Below are positions 53,857 to 62,608 of a stretch of DNA of 64,000 nt, piece by piece (position 1 is the stretch's first letter; each line of letters starts with the position of its first letter). Location of the stretch: contig OY969811.1 of NCBI GenBank assembly GCA_963703315.1, positions 1,536,001 through 1,600,000 of the forward strand, in the 5' to 3' direction. The translations under genes and the position numbers were made by a program. Source of the stretch: an uncultured cyanobacterium. Lineage in GTDB: Bacteria > Cyanobacteriota > Cyanobacteriia > Pseudanabaenales > Pseudanabaenaceae. A model generated the notes under the pieces. It was given only the letters and a program-made list of their open reading frames with translations. It did not search any database and was not told the origin of the DNA.

Positions 53857-53912
53857 AAAACCATTTAGAATAGAACTGTGCTTAGCACAGTTCTATTCTA
53901 AATGGTTTTATG
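53854..53912. repeat. Perfect 59-bp palindrome forming the whole divergent intergenic region including both ATGs
   Basis: cataaaaccatttagaatagaactgtgc-tta-gcacagttctattctaaatggttttatg. Confidence 0.92.
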
Positions 53913-55961
53913 GCGAATTTGTGGATTGAGGGTGGTAGTCGTAGTGGCAAGACTGAACGAGTGGTTCAGCAGTTTTGTGACTGGGCAGAAACTGACTTTG
54001 CCAAAAAAGCTAATCCTCAAGCAGCTTCCCAAAAGGTTTTAGTTTTAACCGTTGATTCTGAGCAAAGACGCAAACTGAGCGATCACCTGATTGTCACCAC
54101 GCATGGGCGCTATCCTGTCACTGCGGTTACACCCTTGAGCTTTTTTCGCGATGAAGTGCGTTTATTTTGGACATTATTAGTCAAAAACCTTAACTTAAAG
54201 GCTCAGTTTCCTCTGCTTCTAAGAGTTGAAAATGAGCAGGAACTCACCAATCAAGTCTGGAAAGATCGCCTTGAAATGGGAACTCTGCAAAGGTCGGGAA
54301 TTGGACAGGAAAGGCTGGTACGCAGATTGTTAGATTTATTTTTGTTAGCCGCCTATAGTGGTCGAGAGATTACCGAAATTCCGACAATTCTCAATGCAGG
54401 TATTGAAACTAATCCCTTAGAATCTGCTCTTGATAATGGAGAACAAAATTCTCTATCCACAAGTTCCGTATTAGAGCAATGGCAAGAAATCGGGGAAGCT
54501 TTGCAAGAATGGCGGGACTATTGCTGGGAAAGAGGCTTGCTGACCTATGGCATTATTACCGATTTATTTGCCCATCATTTACTTCCAAATCTTCAATATC
54601 AACGAAGACTCAAGCAACGATTTCAATATATGATCGTTGACCGTGCCGATGAAATGCCAGCGATCACTTGTGATTTGTGCAAGTTTCTATTACAAAATGG
54701 CGCTCAAGGAATGGTTACGTTTAATCCTGATGGATCGGCAAGACTAGGACTAGGTGGTGATCCTGAATATTGGCAAGAAATTAAATCTGAATGTGAAGTA
54801 ATCAAGTTACCCCATGCCCAAAACACGTTAGGCGATGAAATTGGAGCATCAGTTTTAGAAGTTGTCCGCGAACCAATTTTACAGTTTATCGAACCCTATC
54901 CACAGGTTTATGCGATTGAATCAGTTTCTCGCGCCAAACTGTTCCGTAATGTTGCGGAAACGATCGCCTCAGCGATCGCTTCAGGTGAGATAAAAGCCAA
55001 CGAAATCGCCATTATTGCCCCCGGATTAGATAACATCGCCAAATATGCGATCGCCGAAATTCTCCGTAAAAAAGAAATCAATGTTAATCCCCTTAACGAT
55101 CAACGCCCCTTATCCTATTCTGCCCAAGTGCGATCGCTGCTTACTCTGATCACATTGGTCTATCCCAATCTTGGTAAATTAGTAAGTCGCGATCACATTG
55201 CCGAAATGTTGGTTGTGCTGATCGAGGCGATCGATCCAGTTCGGGCAGGAATGCTAGCTGACTATTGCTTTGCACCACATCCAGAGCATCCACAACTACT
55301 AGCATCAGAAACCTATAACCAATGGAATCGCCTCGGTTATGAAGCAACACAAGCCTATGCTCAATTACGAAAATGGATTGAACAACAATCACCTAAAGAC
55401 ACACCACTTCTATTCATAGATCGGGCAATTCAAGCCTTTTTTAAACCCCGTAAACTCAGCTATGAAAGTACTTCCACCTTACAATCATTAATCGAAACTG
55501 CTCAATATTATTGGCAGCTTGGCTATCGCCTCGATCAAGAAGATCCCATTATTCTCGAAAATTTTATTCAACTGATTCGACAAGGCACTGTCACTGCTAA
55601 TCCTTATGCCCCCAATCTCCCCCAAGATAGCGTTGTCCTTGCTACGATCTTCCAATACCGCATGGCAAGACTTTCCCACCGTTGGCAATTTTGGCTAGAT
55701 GCTAGTTCTGACCTTTGGCTACAGGGTGGAGCCGCATCTCTATTTGGTGCGCCACTCTTTCTCAAAGGTTGGCATGGAAAACTATGGACGACTGAGGATC
55801 AAAGCAAAGCCGATATGCAACGCTTAGAGAAGTTAATCAGAGATTTGCTCGATCGCACTGATGAGCGTCTATATCTCTGTCACAGCGAACTTAGTACTAA
55901 TGGTCAAATCCAAAATGGAGTCTTGAGTCCATTAATTGAGGTTAGTAGCACAAATTCATGA
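53910..55961 (+). CDS. Cyanobacterial protein with degenerate UvrD/SF1-helicase-like P-loop
   Basis: WIEGGSRSGKT, GLLTYG, IVDRADE, IAIIAPGLD, IDPVRA, TIFQYR, WQFWLD, LYLCHSEL. Confidence 0.65.
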   Translation: MANLWIEGGSRSGKTERVVQQFCDWAETDFAKKANPQAASQKVLVLTVDSEQRRKLSDHLIVTTHGRYPVTAVTPLSFFRDEVRLFWTLLVKNLNLKAQFPLLLRVENEQELTNQVWKDRLEMGTLQRSGIGQERLVRRLLDLFLLAAYSGREITEIPTILNAGIETNPLESALDNGEQNSLSTSSVLEQWQEIGEALQEWRDYCWERGLLTYGIITDLFAHHLLPNLQYQRRLKQRFQYMIVDRADEMPAITCDLCKFLLQNGAQGMVTFNPDGSARLGLGGDPEYWQEIKSECEVIKLPHAQNTLGDEIGASVLEVVREPILQFIEPYPQVYAIESVSRAKLFRNVAETIASAIASGEIKANEIAIIAPGLDNIAKYAIAEILRKKEINVNPLNDQRPLSYSAQVRSLLTLITLVYPNLGKLVSRDHIAEMLVVLIEAIDPVRAGMLADYCFAPHPEHPQLLASETYNQWNRLGYEATQAYAQLRKWIEQQSPKDTPLLFIDRAIQAFFKPRKLSYESTSTLQSLIETAQYYWQLGYRLDQEDPIILENFIQLIRQGTVTANPYAPNLPQDSVVLATIFQYRMARLSHRWQFWLDASSDLWLQGGAASLFGAPLFLKGWHGKLWTTEDQSKADMQRLEKLIRDLLDRTDERLYLCHSELSTNGQIQNGVLSPLIEVSSTNS

Positions 55962-55967
55962 AAAAAG

Positions 55968-56198
55968 ATGCATTTTGGAAGCCCGAATGCTCGCTATTTA
56001 AAAAAGGCGATTAAGTCAGCCGATCGGGTTGTTGTTGCTTGGGGAAATAACGGGAAGTTAATGCAACGCGATCGCCTTGTTTTAGAGTTGCTATCTAAAC
56101 AAAATATTCAACCTCACTGTTTAGGAATCACAAAATCAGGCTATTCGCGTCATTCGCTATACATTCTGTGTAGTAAGCAATTGAGGGTTTGCAGGTGA
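55968..56198 (+). pseudogene. DUF1643-family C-terminal remnant
   Basis: VVVAWGNNG, CLGITKSG..RH.LY; N-terminal half absent. Confidence 0.6.
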
Positions 56199-56287
56199 TT
56201 TGCTAAACGAAACTCACTCCATGCTTCATAACACAAAATTTCATTTATACTAGGGTTTGGGATCAATATGTATCGTAGTAATCTAGT

Positions 56288-58402
56288 ATGCATTTCAAAT
56301 TTTCTCCAAGTATCCTTAGCAGACTAGGAGAAGAACTAATTCCTAATCCTGATCAGGGTATTTTGGAGCTAGTCAAAAACTCTTATGATGCAGATGCTAC
56401 AGTGTGTGAGATCGAGTTACTAAATACCGAGGAGATCGGTGGCAGTATTGTGATCTCCGATAACGGTATGGGGATGGATCTTGAAACTCTTCAAAGTGGC
56501 TGGTTAGTTATTGGAAAATCTGAAAAAGAGGCGGCTAGTGATCGCACATCTCTTAATAGATTGAGAGTAGGATCTAAAGGTTTAGGGAGGCTTGCCGCAT
56601 TACGACTAGGAACTCATGTAGAACTCACCACACGACCAAAAAGTGAATCAAACATAGAATATTCCGTTAGTATGTGCTGGGATGATTTTAACAATGTTGA
56701 TTCTGTGGAAAAAGTAATTTTTTCTCCCACAACTAAGCCAACAGAGTGTAGACATGGAACAAAAATTGTAGTTAGTAATTTGAACGTAAAAATAGGTAAG
56801 CGAGAGGTTAATAGACTTGCAAGAGAGTTATTACTACTAGCCGATCCTTTTGACACTAACACATCGTTTCGACCTAAGTTAATTGGAACTGGATTTACGG
56901 ACTTAGAAAAGCAAGTCAATGAACAATTTTTTGAAGATGCCGAATTCTTTCTTAAAGCATCTCTTGACAAGAATGGATATGCTTCTGCTCAGTTAGTGGA
57001 TTGGAAAGGTTCTACTGTCGCTATAGCTTCACATTCTGATATTAGTAAATATCGACAACAATTAGATATAAATGAGGGATTACCAGATGGAACAAATTTA
57101 TCTATGGATAGTCCTTATCAAAACTCTGTACCTGCTAACTTTGAACTGTGGATTTTTCAACTTAATCCACAAAGCTTTTCCACTAAAAATCGTGAAGATA
57201 ATTCTCGGCAAATCCGCAGATGGTTGGCAGAAGTTGGTGGTGTACATCTGTATCATCGAGGATTGAGAGTTGCTCCTTATGGAGATAAGGGTGATGATTG
57301 GCTAAAAATCAATTTGTCGAGATCTCGGAATCCTCAAGTCCGCCCTTCAACAAGCACCGTCATTGGTAGGGTTATTGCAGAAGATGCAAATAGTCTCTTG
57401 TTACAAAAAACAAATCGTCTGGGATTTCTAGAAAATGAAACTTTTCTTAATCTGCAACAATTTGCAATGAATACACTTGAATGGATTGCAAATTTTCGTT
57501 TGCAAACAGTAGAAGTAAAACAGGAACAGGTAAAAAGACAAATAAAACCTAAGATTGCTGAAGCTAAGAAAAACATAGAAGATATTATTACTACTTATAT
57601 TCCAGAACCAAAACCTAGAGAAAAAACACTATTAGCAGTAGAAGATTATGACAAGGTCAGAGAAGAAGAGGTGGAAGTCTTAAATGTTGAACTACAACTA
57701 TATCGTAGCTTAGCAACAGCAGGGACTACTGCTGCTATCTTTGCTCATGAATCTGGCAGAGAAATTAACACCTTAAAAGGTCAAGTTGGTATTTTAAATG
57801 CAAAAATGCAGAAATATGTAGAAACCGAAATATATCTCAAGTATTTTGCAAAAACCTTTACAAATATTCAAAAACTAGCTGGTTCGGTTCAAGGCTTTGC
57901 TAAATATCCAATTTATCTATTAAAAAAAGAAAAGCGATCACAAGGAAAAGTTGAAATACATCAAGTGATAAATGATGTAATCAGCTTGTTTGATCCTTTT
58001 CTCGAAAGTTCTAATACTACTATTGAGTTAGATAGAGTAAATGCTGAACTTAATTTGCGAGGAAGTACGGCTCTCGTAGAGGCAATTTTAATTAATCTAA
58101 TTACTAATGCAATTAATGCTTTTAATACTAAAGATGCACCTATTCAAAATCGCAAGATTGTAATCCGAACTGAATCAAATGAAGACTTTATTTGGCTAAG
58201 AGTTATGGATAATGCTTTGGGTATTCAAGGGCTTACAATAGATGAAATCTGGCTGGCTGGCAAAACCACCACGAGATCGGGTACTGGGTTAGGATTGAAA
58301 ATAGCAAAAGACTCAGTTATAGATTTGGGAGGACAAATTAGTGCCGTTGCCAATGGTCAACTAGGTGGGGCAGAGTTTATCGTTCAGTTACCTTTAAAGT
58401 AG
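56288..58402 (+). CDS. GHKL (MORC/MutL/Hsp90-like) ATPase fused to a C-terminal histidine kinase
   Basis: N-terminal ELVKNSYDADA, ISDNGMGM, GSKGLGRLA; S5-like GVHLY..G.RV.PYG..GDDWL; C-terminal H-box FAHE, NLITNA, DNALG, GTGLGL, GGAEF; no TM segment. Confidence 0.85.
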   Translation: MHFKFSPSILSRLGEELIPNPDQGILELVKNSYDADATVCEIELLNTEEIGGSIVISDNGMGMDLETLQSGWLVIGKSEKEAASDRTSLNRLRVGSKGLGRLAALRLGTHVELTTRPKSESNIEYSVSMCWDDFNNVDSVEKVIFSPTTKPTECRHGTKIVVSNLNVKIGKREVNRLARELLLLADPFDTNTSFRPKLIGTGFTDLEKQVNEQFFEDAEFFLKASLDKNGYASAQLVDWKGSTVAIASHSDISKYRQQLDINEGLPDGTNLSMDSPYQNSVPANFELWIFQLNPQSFSTKNREDNSRQIRRWLAEVGGVHLYHRGLRVAPYGDKGDDWLKINLSRSRNPQVRPSTSTVIGRVIAEDANSLLLQKTNRLGFLENETFLNLQQFAMNTLEWIANFRLQTVEVKQEQVKRQIKPKIAEAKKNIEDIITTYIPEPKPREKTLLAVEDYDKVREEEVEVLNVELQLYRSLATAGTTAAIFAHESGREINTLKGQVGILNAKMQKYVETEIYLKYFAKTFTNIQKLAGSVQGFAKYPIYLLKKEKRSQGKVEIHQVINDVISLFDPFLESSNTTIELDRVNAELNLRGSTALVEAILINLITNAINAFNTKDAPIQNRKIVIRTESNEDFIWLRVMDNALGIQGLTIDEIWLAGKTTTRSGTGLGLKIAKDSVIDLGGQISAVANGQLGGAEFIVQLPLK

Positions 58403-58412
58403 GATAATTTAT

Positions 58413-59132
58413 ATGCAAATTCAGCAAATTCGTAAAGTCGCGATCGTAGATGACACACAGAGTGCTAGGGAAGAGCTAGCTGAAACTCTTGAAATAGTCG
58501 GGTTTGAACCTTTTATAGTTGAAAATTCTTGGACTGAAATTAATTCTTTAGTAGAACATATCCAAGCAAATTCTCAGGCGGTTATTTGCGATCATCGGCT
58601 TTCTGATAGTGGGTTAGCTTCATTTACAGGGGCTGAATTAATGCCTTCACTTTATAAAAACAAATTTCCATTTCTCCTAATAACTCAATACACTGATCAG
58701 GATATTAATGATTCTATTCGTAAATATAGAGATAAAATTCCTATCGTCTTGAAACGAGAGGAGCTAATTGATTTATATGATATAAATACTATTGGTAATA
58801 AAATCAAAAAAGGACTTGAAACTTGTTCTCAAGAGTTTCAAAATATCATGTCGTCAACACGCCGACCTCATAGAACGTTTATCCATATCGTTAACATTAA
58901 TAATGGTCTTGTAGAGGCATTTGTTCCAAGCTGGAATCCTTACCATGCAGTGAGCTTCCCACTATCACTAATATCAGAAGAGTTTTCCTCTAATATAGAG
59001 TCTCGTCTTAAACAAAAAGAAGATACTTGGTTAATTGCTTGCGTTAATACAGGAGCAGAAAAAGCAGATGACCTTTACTTTACAAAATTTGAAGTCGCAC
59101 CAGAGTTAGATGAAAATGATGGACTTGCCTAG
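58413..59132 (+). CDS. Response-regulator receiver domain fused to an unknown C-terminal domain
   Basis: VAIVDD, VICDHRL (phospho-Asp position), LLITQY, LKR; C-terminal VPSWNP...VN.GAE...DLYF. Confidence 0.75.
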   Translation: MQIQQIRKVAIVDDTQSAREELAETLEIVGFEPFIVENSWTEINSLVEHIQANSQAVICDHRLSDSGLASFTGAELMPSLYKNKFPFLLITQYTDQDINDSIRKYRDKIPIVLKREELIDLYDINTIGNKIKKGLETCSQEFQNIMSSTRRPHRTFIHIVNINNGLVEAFVPSWNPYHAVSFPLSLISEEFSSNIESRLKQKEDTWLIACVNTGAEKADDLYFTKFEVAPELDENDGLA

Positions 59133-60108
59133 ATTAATAGTTTTAGATGTCGCTCATGGTAACTGCTCAATTCTTCAGGATACCGAAGGTACTATTGTCA
59201 TTGACTGCGCTCATGGTGATACGTTGATTGAAACCCTTCGGCATCTTAAGATTTCGCAAGTTGATCGCATCATGATTTCTCATGCCGATCAAGATCACTT
59301 CAAGGGATTTATCGATTTACTTGCAGATGAATCAATAACCGTAAAATATGTTCATCTCAATCCTGACCCAAAGAAAGAAACTCTGGTTTTTAGAGCTTTA
59401 CGTCGAGCCATTGGAGAGGCAAAGGAACGGAATGGTACAACTCATGAATTACTACATACAGGAATGATGGGTAAACTAGATATTGGAGAAGTTAGGATTG
59501 AAATTCTCTCTCCAAGTATAGATATCATGGGCTATTCAGGTGGTCAAGATTTACAAGGAAGAAACTTAACATCTAATTCTGTGTCAGCAGTTATTCGGCT
59601 TGTTTATAAATCTCGCGGAGTAGCACTTCTTGCAGGAGATATTGATCAGGTAGGTTTAGATAATTTACTCAATAATAGATATGAAGTTGAATCTGACATT
59701 CTTGTTTTCCCTCATCATGGAGGTAATACAGGTACAGGTAAAAGCACAGAAAACCATGAATTTACTATCAAATTGTGCCAACAAGTAAAACCAAATTTAG
59801 TGATCTTCTCAACTGGTAGAAGGGATAAAGAACCACATTATCCTCGCCAAGAAATTGTACAATCTTTACTTGCTATACTTCCCGATGTACATATTATGTG
59901 TACTCAGCTTGCTAAAACTTGCTCTGCCGAGATATTAACAATTCCTGCTCACTTAAACAAACTTCCATCAAGAGGGCAAGACGATAATCACTGCTGTGGT
60001 GGAACAGTTGTCATCAATTTAAGTGAAACTGAAACAACTTATGCTCCAAACAGTGATCATCGTCAATTTGTCAAAGAAAATATAGTTTCTGCTTTGTGTA
60101 TGCGTTGA
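59110..60108 (+). CDS. ComEC/Rec2-like MBL-fold metallo-hydrolase (putative nuclease), soluble
   Basis: LDVAHGNC, IDC, ISHADQDH, N..S.V, LLAGD, FPHHG, FSTG; overlaps upstream stop. Confidence 0.85.
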   Translation: MKMMDLPRLIVLDVAHGNCSILQDTEGTIVIDCAHGDTLIETLRHLKISQVDRIMISHADQDHFKGFIDLLADESITVKYVHLNPDPKKETLVFRALRRAIGEAKERNGTTHELLHTGMMGKLDIGEVRIEILSPSIDIMGYSGGQDLQGRNLTSNSVSAVIRLVYKSRGVALLAGDIDQVGLDNLLNNRYEVESDILVFPHHGGNTGTGKSTENHEFTIKLCQQVKPNLVIFSTGRRDKEPHYPRQEIVQSLLAILPDVHIMCTQLAKTCSAEILTIPAHLNKLPSRGQDDNHCCGGTVVINLSETETTYAPNSDHRQFVKENIVSALCMR

Positions 60109-60232
60109 GAACAGCGATCGCATTTAAGAGCAACGGCAAACCCTCCCTAGAATGAATTATGGAACGCGATCGCCTCACCCGCGACAAACATAAAACATAG
60201 CGGAATTACCAACAATCCCAACGACCAATCAA

Positions 60233-60302
60233 GCGATCGCGCTACATCCTCGACCTCGTTAAGTGCGAGTCGGTTAAAATCGTGAATACCTTACCACCAT
60301 TA
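60233..60302 (+). repeat. TA-cassette boundary repeat, copy 1 (internally shortened)
   Basis: gcgatcgcgctacatcctcgacctcgttaagtgcga-gtcggttaaaatcgtgaataccttaccaccatt. Confidence 0.85.
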
Positions 60303-60320
60303 CAGGAGAACAGACACACC

Positions 60321-60542
60321 ATGCTTAAACCGATCACCCTTCAAGTCGAAGCCCCCATCGCCGAGGCATATCAAAATATAACCCCAGAAAATCGTCAAGC
60401 CTTGCAAACACTTGTCAGCATCTTTTTACAATGTATTTCCCCACCAACCCCACTACAAAAAGTAGTCCAAGAGATTCGTTTAGAAGCACAACAAAATGGA
60501 CTTACTCCCGAAATCTTAGAGGAAATCCTCAAGGATGACTAA
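60321..60542 (+). CDS. Antitoxin-like protein
   Basis: AGGAG RBS; ITLQVE..IAEAYQ, EI..EAQQNGLTPEILEEIL; overlaps the PIN gene. Confidence 0.7.
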   Translation: MLKPITLQVEAPIAEAYQNITPENRQALQTLVSIFLQCISPPTPLQKVVQEIRLEAQQNGLTPEILEEILKDD

Positions 60543-60966
60543 ACTAAGATTAGTAATCGATACCAACATCTTGATCAGTGGCTTAATGTCTGTAAATTCT
60601 TTGCCCCAGCAGGTTTTCGACTATGCCACATCTCAAGCAATACTCCTGATATCAGATGAAGTTCAATCAGAAATAGAAAACGTCATCAGCCGCCCAAAAC
60701 TCCAAAAATACATCACCTTAGAAAGACGTACTACATTTTTAAGTGAGTTAAGTCAGCAGGTCGAAAGAGTCACAATCAACCAGCAAATTCGAGCCTGTCG
60801 AGATCCCAAAGATGACAAGTTCCTAGAGTTAGCTGTCTGCGGTGAAGCTAACTACATCATTACAGGCGATGCCGATCTTTTAGATTTACATCCATTCCAA
60901 AATATTTCTATCCTTAAAGCCGCTAGTTTTTTAACTGCGATCGCGCTACATCCTCGACCTCGTTAA
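60535..60966 (+). CDS. PIN-family toxin (putative TA toxin component)
   Basis: LVIDTNILISGL, CRDPKDDKFLELA..G.A.YIITGD.DLL.L.PF; stop codon lies inside repeat copy 2. Confidence 0.9.
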   Translation: MTKLRLVIDTNILISGLMSVNSLPQQVFDYATSQAILLISDEVQSEIENVISRPKLQKYITLERRTTFLSELSQQVERVTINQQIRACRDPKDDKFLELAVCGEANYIITGDADLLDLHPFQNISILKAASFLTAIALHPRPR

Positions 60967-61025
60967 GTGCGATCGCGAGTGTCAGCATCGAGTCAGTTAA
61001 AATAATTAATAGCTTGCCCCCATTG
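60937..61025 (+). repeat. TA-cassette boundary repeat, copy 2
   Basis: gcgatcgcgctacatcctcgacctcgttaagtgcgatcgc...gagtcagttaaaat...aatagcttgcccccattg. Confidence 0.85.
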
Positions 61026-61080
61026 CAGAAAAAGTAAACTCAACCTTGCATAATCTAGAATTTATTTGAGGTAAACCATT

Positions 61081-61395
61081 ATGTTGCAACTAGAAATCAA
61101 ATCCGATGCACCCGATCTCGAAATCGTCCAAAACCTAGTCAGAGCCGCGATTGATGCAGAAATCAAAAACTTACAGCGATCGCTAGATAAAACTAATAAA
61201 TTTTTAAAAGAATTTGAAACCAAATATCAAATCTCCTCCGACCTTTTTCTCAGTGATTGGACTGCTGAAGACCTCAAAGGTGGTGACGAAGAATATGTGA
61301 GTTGGGCAGGTGAAGCCAAAATCAAGAAGAGACTAACTAGTTCTCTACAAAAGTTACAAGCGATCGAATATGTTACTCAACAACTATCAATCTAA
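61081..61395 (+). CDS. Antitoxin-like protein, partner of a DUF6516-type toxin
   Basis: LKEFETKYQISS..F...W, D.EY..WAGE; overlaps the downstream toxin remnant. Confidence 0.65.
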   Translation: MLQLEIKSDAPDLEIVQNLVRAAIDAEIKNLQRSLDKTNKFLKEFETKYQISSDLFLSDWTAEDLKGGDEEYVSWAGEAKIKKRLTSSLQKLQAIEYVTQQLSI

Positions 61396-61559
61396 CATCA
61401 TCTCCATTATTCAAAAATATGTAAATGATGGATGGATTCTATCCTTTAACTTTTCTGTTGATCCTAGATCATAAACATATCAAAGATAAAATCATTTCCT
61501 CTGAAATTCCAGATATTGAGCAAGTGATCCTAGAAATTATTACCGATTATTTAAGTTAA
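61370..61559 (+). pseudogene. Internally deleted DUF6516-like toxin remnant
   Basis: MLLNNYQ...FSVDPRS* then, in another frame, HKHIKDKIISSEIPDIEQVILEI...*; central part missing. Confidence 0.55.
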
Positions 61560-61596
61560 ATCCCTTATAGAAAGCGATCGCCTCACCCGTGATAAA

Positions 61597-61683
61597 GATC
61601 GCACTACATCCTCGACCTCGTTAAGTGCGATCGTCCGCGTAAGTGTCGAGTCCGTTAAAATTGTGAATAGCTTGCCACCATTG
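61597..61683 (+). repeat. TA-cassette boundary repeat, copy 3
   Basis: gatcgcactacatcctcgacctcgttaagtgcgatcg...gagtccgttaaaattgtgaatagcttgccaccattg. Confidence 0.85.
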
Positions 61684-61771
61684 AATGAACGCATATAATC
61701 GCCATGATATAGAGCAAACTTATAGTTACGCTATACTAGCTAATGATTCCAACTTTCGCAGGATTGGGAAA

Positions 61772-62029
61772 ATGAACATTGCTTTAAAGCCAGAACAGGA
61801 AAATTTTATTCTCGCCAAACTTCAAGATGGCAAGTATCAGAGTGTTGACTCTCTCCTAGCTTTTGCATTTCAACTACTAGAAGAACATGAAGCCAAACAA
61901 CAAAAGTTGAGCGAACTAAGAAAAAAAATTGCTGAAGGAATGGAGCAAATCAAACAAGGCGATGTCGTTGATGGTGAATTAGTATTTCAACAATTACAGG
62001 TCAAACTAGAGCAGATGAGTCAAAAATAA
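61772..62029 (+). CDS. ParD-like antitoxin
   Basis: MNIALKPEQE.FI...L..GKY.S, AFQLLEE, LRKKIAEG.EQ...G.VVDGE.VF. Confidence 0.85.
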   Translation: MNIALKPEQENFILAKLQDGKYQSVDSLLAFAFQLLEEHEAKQQKLSELRKKIAEGMEQIKQGDVVDGELVFQQLQVKLEQMSQK

Positions 62030-62041
62030 AAAAGATTCATT

Positions 62042-62353
62042 ATGTCTAGCTACTCCTTCTCAAAAATAGCCATCAAAGATCTAGACGATATCTGCACATT
62101 TATTGGACAGATCAATCCAAAAGCTGCGAGTAATCTATTTGATAATATTCGTCAAAAATGTAAGCTCGTTGCTAGTTTCCCCAACATGGGCAAAAACTAC
62201 ACTTGGATTGCTGCCAATTTGCGTGGTTTCACAATAGATGATTACATCGTCTTTTACTATCCTCGTAACGATGGCATTGATATCATTCGAGTGATATCTG
62301 GGAAACGAGATCTTGAGTCCATATTTGAAGAATTTACTGATGAAAATAATTAG
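62042..62353 (+). CDS. RelE/ParE family toxin
   Basis: A.KDL.DI..FI...NP.AA, FPNMG, LRGF....YIVFY, IDIIRVISG.RD. Confidence 0.9.
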   Translation: MSSYSFSKIAIKDLDDICTFIGQINPKAASNLFDNIRQKCKLVASFPNMGKNYTWIAANLRGFTIDDYIVFYYPRNDGIDIIRVISGKRDLESIFEEFTDENN

Positions 62354-62363
62354 TATCTTTTTA

Positions 62364-62523
62364 CGATGCCGATCTTTTAGATTTACATCCATTTCAAAAT
62401 ATTTCTATCATTAAAGCCGCTAGTTTTTTAACTGTGATCGCGCTACATTCTTGACCTCGTTAAGTGCGATCGCGCGAGTAAGTGTGGAGTCCGTTAAAAT
62501 TGTGAATAGCTTACTACCATTGA
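62364..62523 (+). repeat. Duplicate of the PIN gene 3' end plus boundary repeat copy 4
   Basis: cgatgccgatcttttagatttacatcc...gccgctagttttttaact nearly identical to 60867-60936, followed by the boundary repeat (62434-62523). Confidence 0.88.
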
Positions 62524-62608
62524 ATGAGAGATAGAAAATTTTGCTATAATTCACCATAATGGCACTTCATGAATTGCCCCTTACCATTACTAAAAACATC
62601 AACCCACC

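Follow-up and report, generated by a model that had tools for sequence, protein, structure and literature searches.

Within a window of 64,000 nucleotides from an uncultured cyanobacterium of the Pseudanabaenaceae (contig OY969811.1, positions 1,536,001 to 1,600,000), an operon of three genes, hereafter the trio, encodes a GHKL ATPase/histidine kinase fusion protein (gene 1), a receiver protein with a C-terminal OB-fold domain (gene 2), and a ComEC-type metallo-beta-lactamase (MBL) hydrolase (gene 3); positions below are those of the window. Our leading interpretation, which we regard as evenly poised between right and wrong, is that the trio constitutes a phosphorelay-gated MBL nuclease, that is, a mobile system directed against phages or plasmids, which arose from a four-gene cassette whose methylase was lost. 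A defence role in the wider sense, with the different readings taken together, is quite probable. Judged from sequence comparison, the trio is intact, mobile, and under purifying selection, and modelling predicts that the receiver protein binds the MBL via its OB domain.

The original prediction for this region, made from the DNA letters, had described three tightly linked genes, and the reading frames agree: genes 1 and 2 are separated by 10 bp, and genes 2 and 3 overlap by 14–23 nt. It had also credited gene 1 with two ATP-binding modules, an intact FAHE H-box, and no membrane sensor, and each of these points was borne out. Two Bergerat-fold modules were detected, HATPase_c_3 at residues 24–135 (Pfam E 2e-21) and HATPase_c at residues 597–703, and the middle domain may, by analogy, be S5-like. 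Residues E27, N31, D58, G60, G62, H487, N603, N607, D641, and G645 were unchanged in all 42 aligned homologues, with H487 sitting in the FAHE H-box (position 57746). No membrane segment was found in gene 1, the highest score of a hydrophobic 19-mer being 1.48. NCBIfam gave partial matches to gene 1, and kinase matches in the PDB spanned profile positions ∼440–687. Of the hallmarks of a two-component system, the H-box His, the N and G boxes, and the receiver DD/D/T residues are present in the trio.

The receiver domain of gene 2 was modelled with a predicted local distance difference test score (pLDDT) of 92.7 and matched receiver folds with Z values of up to 12.9 (root-mean-square deviation (rmsd) 2.7 over 124 residues). 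D13, D14, and D60 were kept in 42/42 gene 2 homologues, as was T or S at position 91. The lysine that the original prediction had listed together with these residues did not hold up: K114 occurs in just 2/42 homologues, the conserved basic residue is R115 (36/42), and the canonical receiver Lys seems to have given way to Arg in this receiver family. By eye, the receivers of related loci that encode an HNH nuclease (HNH-type loci, described below) show Lys at the matching place. The remainder of gene 2 (residues 144–239), when folded alone, gave a predicted five-strand beta barrel with one helix (pLDDT 83.5). OB-type domains topped the list of fold matches, the best being EF-P (Z 6.5, rmsd 2.4 over 63 residues), with the cold-shock domain (CSD) of Unr also matched (rmsd 3.9 over 77 residues); the ESM Atlas yielded no usable match for this domain. 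The isoelectric point (pI) of the OB domain is 4.9, and 38/40 family members have a pI of 5.9 or below. No winged-helix domain was seen on gene 2 in the predicted models.

Gene 3 matches Pfam Lactamase_B, its best PDB matches are the nuclease domains of ComEC (E 5e-15), and its product is probably a nuclease. With residues numbered from the ATG at 59119, H55, D57, D59, H60, N153, D174, H199, and H200 were kept in 32/32 homologues. Toward the C terminus, C261, C268, C293, and H314 are invariant and C327 is found in 30/32, a set that likely forms a structural zinc site. No transmembrane segment was detected in the 332 residues, and the TIGR00361 score of 40.8 bits falls short of that model's cut-off (190). 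The earlier description of gene 3 as a soluble MBL hydrolase with a HADQDH motif stands.

Structure prediction of the receiver-MBL complex, which the original prediction had proposed as a check, placed the MBL on the OB domain. Three runs with genes 2 and 3 each gave a score of 0.90, compared with 0.64 for the best of 3 controls; the score mark was attained by 116/157 solved complexes and by 2/215 mismatched pairs. Contacts in the models agreed by 100%, and the pLDDT of the partners was at least 88. All named contacts of gene 2 fall within residues 147–239, i.e. the OB domain only, and those of the MBL lie in the helices after the metal motif (58–71 and 80–109) and at 32–38 and 283–288.

The same OB domain was found in a second setting. 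In a Chloroflexota genome, it caps the C terminus of an N6 methylase of 890 aa, the N terminus of which is MmeI-like, and a gene of the same MBL family follows directly. Among the methylase homologues listed (120 of the 238 found), 86 carry the OB domain; homologues are labelled Ktedonobacteraceae. The 890-aa methylase is present in 10/112 genomes of the Chloroflexota family, and in 8 of these 10 an MBL gene or stub comes next, the remaining two comprising one without MBL and one at a contig edge. No kinase was detected near these loci in the regions fetched. A two-gene locus of this kind lies at L274:7159–10870, others are found in L296, L299, L300, and L303, and broken ones in L297, L298, L301, and L302. 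The MBLs of the methylase-OB loci form one clade beside the cyanobacterial MBLs. Because the OB+MBL pair occurs both on a receiver and on a methylase, sequence comparison suggests that it is a portable effector module, and the relay likely controls the enzyme directly and not via transcription. The methylase-OB protein with its MBL, lacking a kinase, represents a second candidate system, for which we found no description in the literature searched. One homologue of the 890-aa methylase lacks the OB domain (L311) and has no OB or MBL match nearby but, by eye, a PIN-like frame downstream, a weak observation with n=1. Stand-alone OB genes of 91–92 aa also exist (L040:8506–8781 and L041:10001–10279), the former adjoining an N4/N6 methylase and a BamHI-like nuclease; from their sequence and neighbours, both look like remnants. 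Further, we compared synonymous divergence between 56288–60108 and its relatives in L011, L224, L225, and L226. In L011 it was 0.58 for gene 1 vs 1.20 and 1.27 for genes 2 and 3, and in L226 it was 0.72 vs 0.48 and 0.70. The divergence of genes 2 and 3 thus moves together and apart from that of gene 1, hinting that the receiver-MBL pair has been swapped as a unit.

As the original prediction had noted, no methylase is adjacent to the operon, and comparison with related loci suggests how this came about. Fifty-five loci had a close gene 1 match, and removal of 2 duplicates left 53, with 39 belonging to the cyanobacterial clade and 14 lying elsewhere (Chloroflexota, Acidobacteriota, Bacteroidota, Burkholderia, and further contigs). 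Outside the clade, an N6-adenine methylase of 440–490 aa stands beside the kinase in 13/14 loci (one divergent), the exception being a broken prophage copy. Inside it, an N6 methylase or remnant was found in 0/39 loci, five of which hold less than 1.7 kb upstream and one of which is labelled Obscuribacterales. A methylase profile search of 44 genome handles (some denoting the same genome) gave matches of E ∼1e-182 only in the two non-cyanobacterial genomes; in the other 42, the best match was partial (2.5e-11). In the source genome, the best tblastn match to the family methylase had an E of 0.003, the profile gave none at E≤1e-8, and neither the family methylase nor the 890-aa methylase was found as an unlinked copy. 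Matches in PADLOC, NCBIfam, and the PDB did not reveal which target sequence the methylase has.

The HNH-type loci encode a methylase, a kinase, a receiver of ∼210 aa with a helical tail (Asp at 59–61), and an HNH protein; their kinases align full length with the gene 1 family (probability 100, 27% identity), and their methylases are 32–42% identical to those of the MBL-type loci. The cyanobacterial kinases form one clade (FastTree Shimodaira–Hasegawa support 100 with 108 rows; IQ-TREE 94/100 with 25 rows) that is nested in the MBL-type clade (100/100), sister to the HNH-type clade, in midpoint-rooted trees in which the base of the MBL clade is not resolved. As this methylase is present in the sister HNH-type clade too, the simplest account is a single loss, and the methylase was probably lost once in the cyanobacterial branch. 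Many cyanobacterial families contain members of the methylase-free clade, whose kinases have diverged to ∼50% identity. Two side observations concern the methylase and kinase families. The same methylase family (∼430 aa) often occurs without a kinase in prophage loci (L240, L245, L248, L250, L259, L264, and L266), where it faces a HEPN (MAE_28990/RiboL-PSP) gene, in most cases together with GmrSD_N, the product of which in L240 matches PADLOC NsnA (E 8e-55). Distant kinase homologues (L045–L195) pair with C5, N6/N4, and Eco57I-like methylases, Vsr, HNH, and uncharacterised downstream proteins of 340–610 aa.

A comparison of gene neighbourhoods, also proposed with the original prediction, showed that the homologues co-occur. 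Close homologues with names point to a Pseudanabaena-like host. Full-length gene 1 is present in 5/36 same-genus genomes as 7 copies, each followed by genes 2 and 3, with distant matches only in 2 further genomes. Among GTDB loci retrieved via the receiver alignment, gene 1 lies upstream in 30/32, and all 30 have gene 3, or at least its start, downstream; the other two contain the OB domain only. The distribution is patchy, the receiver profile matching 7/401 genomes of the cyanobacterial phylum, source genome included. In 5/5 relatives checked, the DNA after the upstream gene's orthologue is unrelated, and the operon sits at a different site in each; copies were also found on plasmids and in prophages or viral contigs. 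Neighbours of the copies were clustered and a representative of each cluster was scanned (123 proteins). Among them were integrases, ParAB, and toxin-antitoxin genes, as well as a single CBASS-like cluster (SMODS, Cap17-like/TIR), which follows the trio at L020:11782–15089. Patatin and ThiF genes lie beside a four-gene copy on a Hymenobacter plasmid (L196:2437–8246), and G013, G028, and G144 hold two divergent trio copies each. The ratio of nonsynonymous to synonymous substitution rates (dN/dS) was 0.11–0.36 in 32/33 gene-pair comparisons, one being saturated. At the level of sequence, therefore, conservation, linkage, and selection are all evident in the trio. Broken cyanobacterial copies also exist: in L029 the MBL is split, in L042 both kinase and MBL are broken, and in L198 the MBL contains IS982.

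With regard to sensing, phosphotransfer, substrate, and defence, we infer the following scheme. From an ancestral methylase-kinase-receiver-nuclease cassette, the cyanobacterial branch would have dropped the methylase. The MORC-type ATPase would clamp DNA or a DNA-protein complex, as proposed in the available text of PMC2292703 for paraMORCs in restriction systems, which are viewed there as DNA clamps or sensors. When foreign or abnormal DNA is met, H487 would be autophosphorylated, the phosphate would move to D60, and the phosphorylated receiver would deliver or activate the OB-bound MBL, which would cut DNA as the MBL domain of ComEC does. Control would thus lie at the level of protein and not of transcription, and because the relay would gate the nuclease, no protective methylase would be needed. 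A phosphorelay-gated MBL defence system, as put forward by the original prediction, is still the best reading, supported by the synteny, the predicted OB-MBL binding, and the need for the receiver Asp in the Ambrosia system of Pseudomonas aeruginosa (10.1101/2025.09.30.679545); what has changed is that a related layout turns out to have been described already.

Several observations weigh against this phosphorelay reading. The receiver carries Arg at the canonical Lys position. The OB fold reaches Z 6.5, a modest value (<8), and Foldseek returned no match for the OB model at E≤0.001. The complex score may partly reflect likeness to solved ComEC OB+MBL structures, and the acidic OB domain, unlike the electrostatically DNA-binding OB domain of ComEC, may inhibit rather than activate. 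All Ambrosia genes, including the methylase, are required according to the available text of that report, and by analogy a methylase-free form is not guaranteed to work alone. Finally, many GTDB copies adjoin housekeeping genes (EF-G, ribosomal proteins, PutA, and P450), and recognisable adjoining CBASS was seen only in L020 among the clustered neighbours scanned.

The acidity of the OB domain is also a point in favour of an alternative that we consider unlikely, in which the receiver-OB protein would be an antitoxin-like inhibitor that caps a toxic MBL, and an altered phosphorylation state, or a phage protein that disturbs the kinase, would release the enzyme and lead to abortive infection. 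The predicted interface on the MBL (58–71 and 80–109) comes right after HADQDH, and the acidic C-terminal tail of the OB domain forms part of it; two loci with a split receiver gene and an intact MBL (L123 and L275) still encode the OB part; and the operon abuts a PIN toxin-antitoxin array. However, fusion of the OB domain to a DNA methylase is easier to read as tethering a nuclease to DNA, and Ambrosia, as far as its available text describes, defended without host toxicity and lost protection upon the D60A substitution.

It is quite unlikely, in our view, that the MBL acts on a substrate other than DNA (RNA, a nucleotide signal, or a phosphoester) or that the trio is a general stress-signalling module. 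This would fit with phosphorylcholine esterases being the next PDB relatives of gene 3 after ComEC, with the RNA-related nature of the top OB matches (CSD, S1, and EF-P), and with the housekeeping neighbours of many copies, but it sits poorly with the consistent methylase linkage outside cyanobacteria, with the HNH nuclease in the same slot of the sister clade, and with a patchy and mobile distribution. Highly improbable is a role of the phosphorylated receiver as a transcription regulator, its OB domain binding DNA or RNA, that would induce the nuclease gene upon infection, as proposed for Ambrosia. OB folds often bind nucleic acid, and Ambrosia reporters were infection-induced according to the available text; here, however, there is no winged helix, the acidic OB domain is a predicted binding partner of the MBL and travels with it onto a methylase, and the receiver gene overlaps the MBL gene within one operon. 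That the trio is a non-functional leftover decaying since methylase loss is barely credible, because, notwithstanding the three broken cyanobacterial copies and the two OB-only loci (L040 and L041), selection data largely refute decay (dN/dS as above, catalytic residues invariant), and the methylase-free clade has spread across many families at ∼50% kinase identity with no methylase remnant.

The coordinates of the trio, its domains, and its flanking features are as follows.

Positions of the trio and flanking features in the window (aa, amino acids; ORF, open reading frame)
Feature	Position	Strand	Length	Description
Gene 1	56288–58402	+	704 aa	ORF list; N-terminal MORC/paraMORC-type GHKL ATPase, middle domain, linker, C-terminal histidine kinase; soluble
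Gene 2	58413–59132	+	239 aa	ORF list
Gene 2, receiver domain	58413–58841	+		D13, D14, D60, T91; R115 replaces the usual Lys
Gene 2, C-terminal OB-fold domain	58842–59132	+		Residues 144–239; acidic; predicted docking site for gene 3
Gene 3	59110–60108	+	332 aa	ORF list; homologues favour a start at 59119; ComEC-type metallo-beta-lactamase hydrolase; family-specific C-terminal Cys/His set
DUF1643 C-terminal remnant	55968–56198	+		Pfam E 6e-12
HIP1, upstream	56068–56075	no strand		Inside the DUF1643 remnant; not shown as a boundary
HIP1, downstream	60114–60121	no strand		5 bp past the end of gene 3

Both flanks named in the original prediction, a DUF1643 remnant upstream and a toxin-antitoxin array downstream, were found, the downstream PIN gene being confirmed. 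The DUF1643 remnant is the sole ORF of at least 60 aa between the upstream gene and gene 1; it is present in L013 too and co-travels with the operon in some same-genus copies (DNA shared from ∼55965–55986 with L013/L225 and L224). The HIP1 sites at 56068 and 60114 are likewise where they had been reported, with none between them; at a genome density of 1.80 HIP1/kb, gaps this long number 32/8230. Operon copies pooled from 35 loci are HIP1-poor (12 sites in 132 kb vs 497 in 475 kb of flanks), and the operon has a guanine-plus-cytosine content of 36.4% vs 42.2% for the genome. The low guanine-plus-cytosine content and the few HIP1 sites count in favour of mobility, which alone can explain the scarcity. 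The suggestion that the two sites bracket an insertion is not supported, because the DNA common to relatives begins at ∼55965–56250, on either side of 56068, and the HIP1 density makes nearby sites common. No flanking repeats were found at the operon ends, and promoter-like matches at the operon were below chance (7 vs 14.6 expected). In six metatranscriptome runs, 7–12% of sampled words were present, and related-strain contigs covered most of the operon in the four runs examined for this; we do not count this as transcription because contigs in RNA libraries do not demonstrate it.

Several observations were made on the neighbouring DNA. A HIP1-containing repeat of 36–92 nt occurs in 3–4 copies between the toxin-antitoxin pairs at 60157–62527 (60233, 60937, 61595, and 62434), which suggests that the array was built through repeat-mediated insertion, and DNA resembling this array sits downstream of the trio in L013. 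Upstream (53910–55961) lies the gene of a 683-aa UvrD-like protein with weak family matches (Pfam E 0.08; GajB partial), found in 5/5 same-genus genomes checked and thus a core gene. An insertion hotspot shared with Nostoc was considered and rejected; the upstream gene in Nostoc is EF-G and not the helicase-like gene.

The HIP1 sites also permit a reading that we regard as a long shot, in which the MORC-clamp kinase would recognise host GATC/CGATCG marks within HIP1 as self, and mark-poor DNA would fire the relay and unleash the OB-docked nuclease; reliance on this housekeeping methylation would have let the cyanobacterial branch dispense with its methylase. It is based on methylase loss being confined to the cyanobacterial clade, save for one broken prophage copy, and on the Dam-type methylase held by the source genome; GATC and CGATCG methylases generally accompany HIP1, as stated in the available text of PMC4390886. 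If true, the trio would be a phosphorelay-switched restriction system without a methylase of its own, and HIP1 methylation would gain an immune role. More generally, the trio bears on how kinase-receiver pairs beside restriction genes act. It is a three-gene, minimal, and soluble version with predicted direct receiver-nuclease contact, and direct His-Asp switching of an immune nuclease should therefore be testable once its three soluble proteins are purified. As a natural methylase knockout under selection, the cyanobacterial clade also bears on the role of the methylase in four- and five-gene systems.

Searches of PADLOC, the tool named for this purpose in the original prediction, and of NCBIfam returned no system-level match for the trio. 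The MBL fold of gene 3 is used in defence by the effectors PDC-M48B, RTasMBL, LmuA, 6A-MBL, and Avs1a (PADLOC/NCBIfam), to which gene 3 gave weak matches (best E 4e-10; 27 bits vs a cut-off of 220 for 6A-MBL), and genes 1 and 2 matched no partner model of these systems. Searches of the open literature, including the available portions of PMC11090510, PMC7159879, and PMC12839542, returned nothing on the kinase-receiver-MBL combination; most subscription papers lay outside the scope, as did the Ambrosia supplements (>500 candidate clusters), which may list it. In Type 1F Shedu, a receiver domain together with a neighbouring histidine kinase is predicted to switch a nuclease, activation by phosphorylation being a proposal in the available text (10.1101/2023.08.10.552793), but the nuclease is a different one (DUF4263) and is fused straight to the receiver. 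A double-HATPase protein beside a divergent receiver is shared with the paraMORC-like GHKL-kinase fusions (HEF_HK, PF19191) and their Response_reg_2 (PF19192) partners, which are linked to restriction-modification genes (PMC8011034 and PMC2292703, as far as available). C5 methylases and Vsr/HNH predominate in those loci, neither paper uses the word lactamase in its main text, and PF19191 and PF19192 gave no match to the trio at E≤0.1. With ComEC, gene 3 shares the HxDxDH, D, and H ligands. According to the available text of PMC12455585, the MBL domain of ComEC acts on DNA as an endonuclease and 5'-exonuclease and is enhanced by an OB domain, so that OB and MBL cooperate there. The trio differs in lacking a membrane channel, in having an acidic OB domain on a separate, receiver-bearing chain, and in the extra Cys/His motif of its MBL.

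The closest relative is Ambrosia (AbrR-AbrA-AbrB-AbrC-AbrD), which comprises an XRE protein, an N6 methylase, a HATPase kinase, a receiver reported to have a winged helix, and an HNH protein (10.1101/2025.09.30.679545, available text, for this and what follows). It blocks phages; methylation gave phage no protection, and the authors propose transcriptional control and left the role of the methylase unexplained. We compared Ambrosia by its description, using the HNH-type loci as a stand-in; these are not confirmed as Ambrosia proper, and no XRE gene was recognised upstream of them. In both systems, an HSP90-like ATPase/histidine kinase (AbrB in Ambrosia), a receiver, and a nuclease, putative in the trio, lie in one operon, the phospho-acceptor Asp of AbrC (D60) has its counterpart in the invariant D60 of the trio (42/42), and relatives of the trio outside cyanobacteria also carry an N6 methylase, as Ambrosia does in AbrA. 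The original prediction had recognised no named system in this combination. That view stands insofar as the trio departs from Ambrosia in four features, lacking the HipB-like XRE gene (AbrR) and the N6 methylase (AbrA), carrying an OB domain where AbrC has the winged helix, and encoding an MBL in place of the HNH protein (AbrD); it gives way insofar as a described relative exists. Overall, gene content and phylogeny indicate that the trio is a nuclease-swapped, methylase-free sister of the Ambrosia layout.

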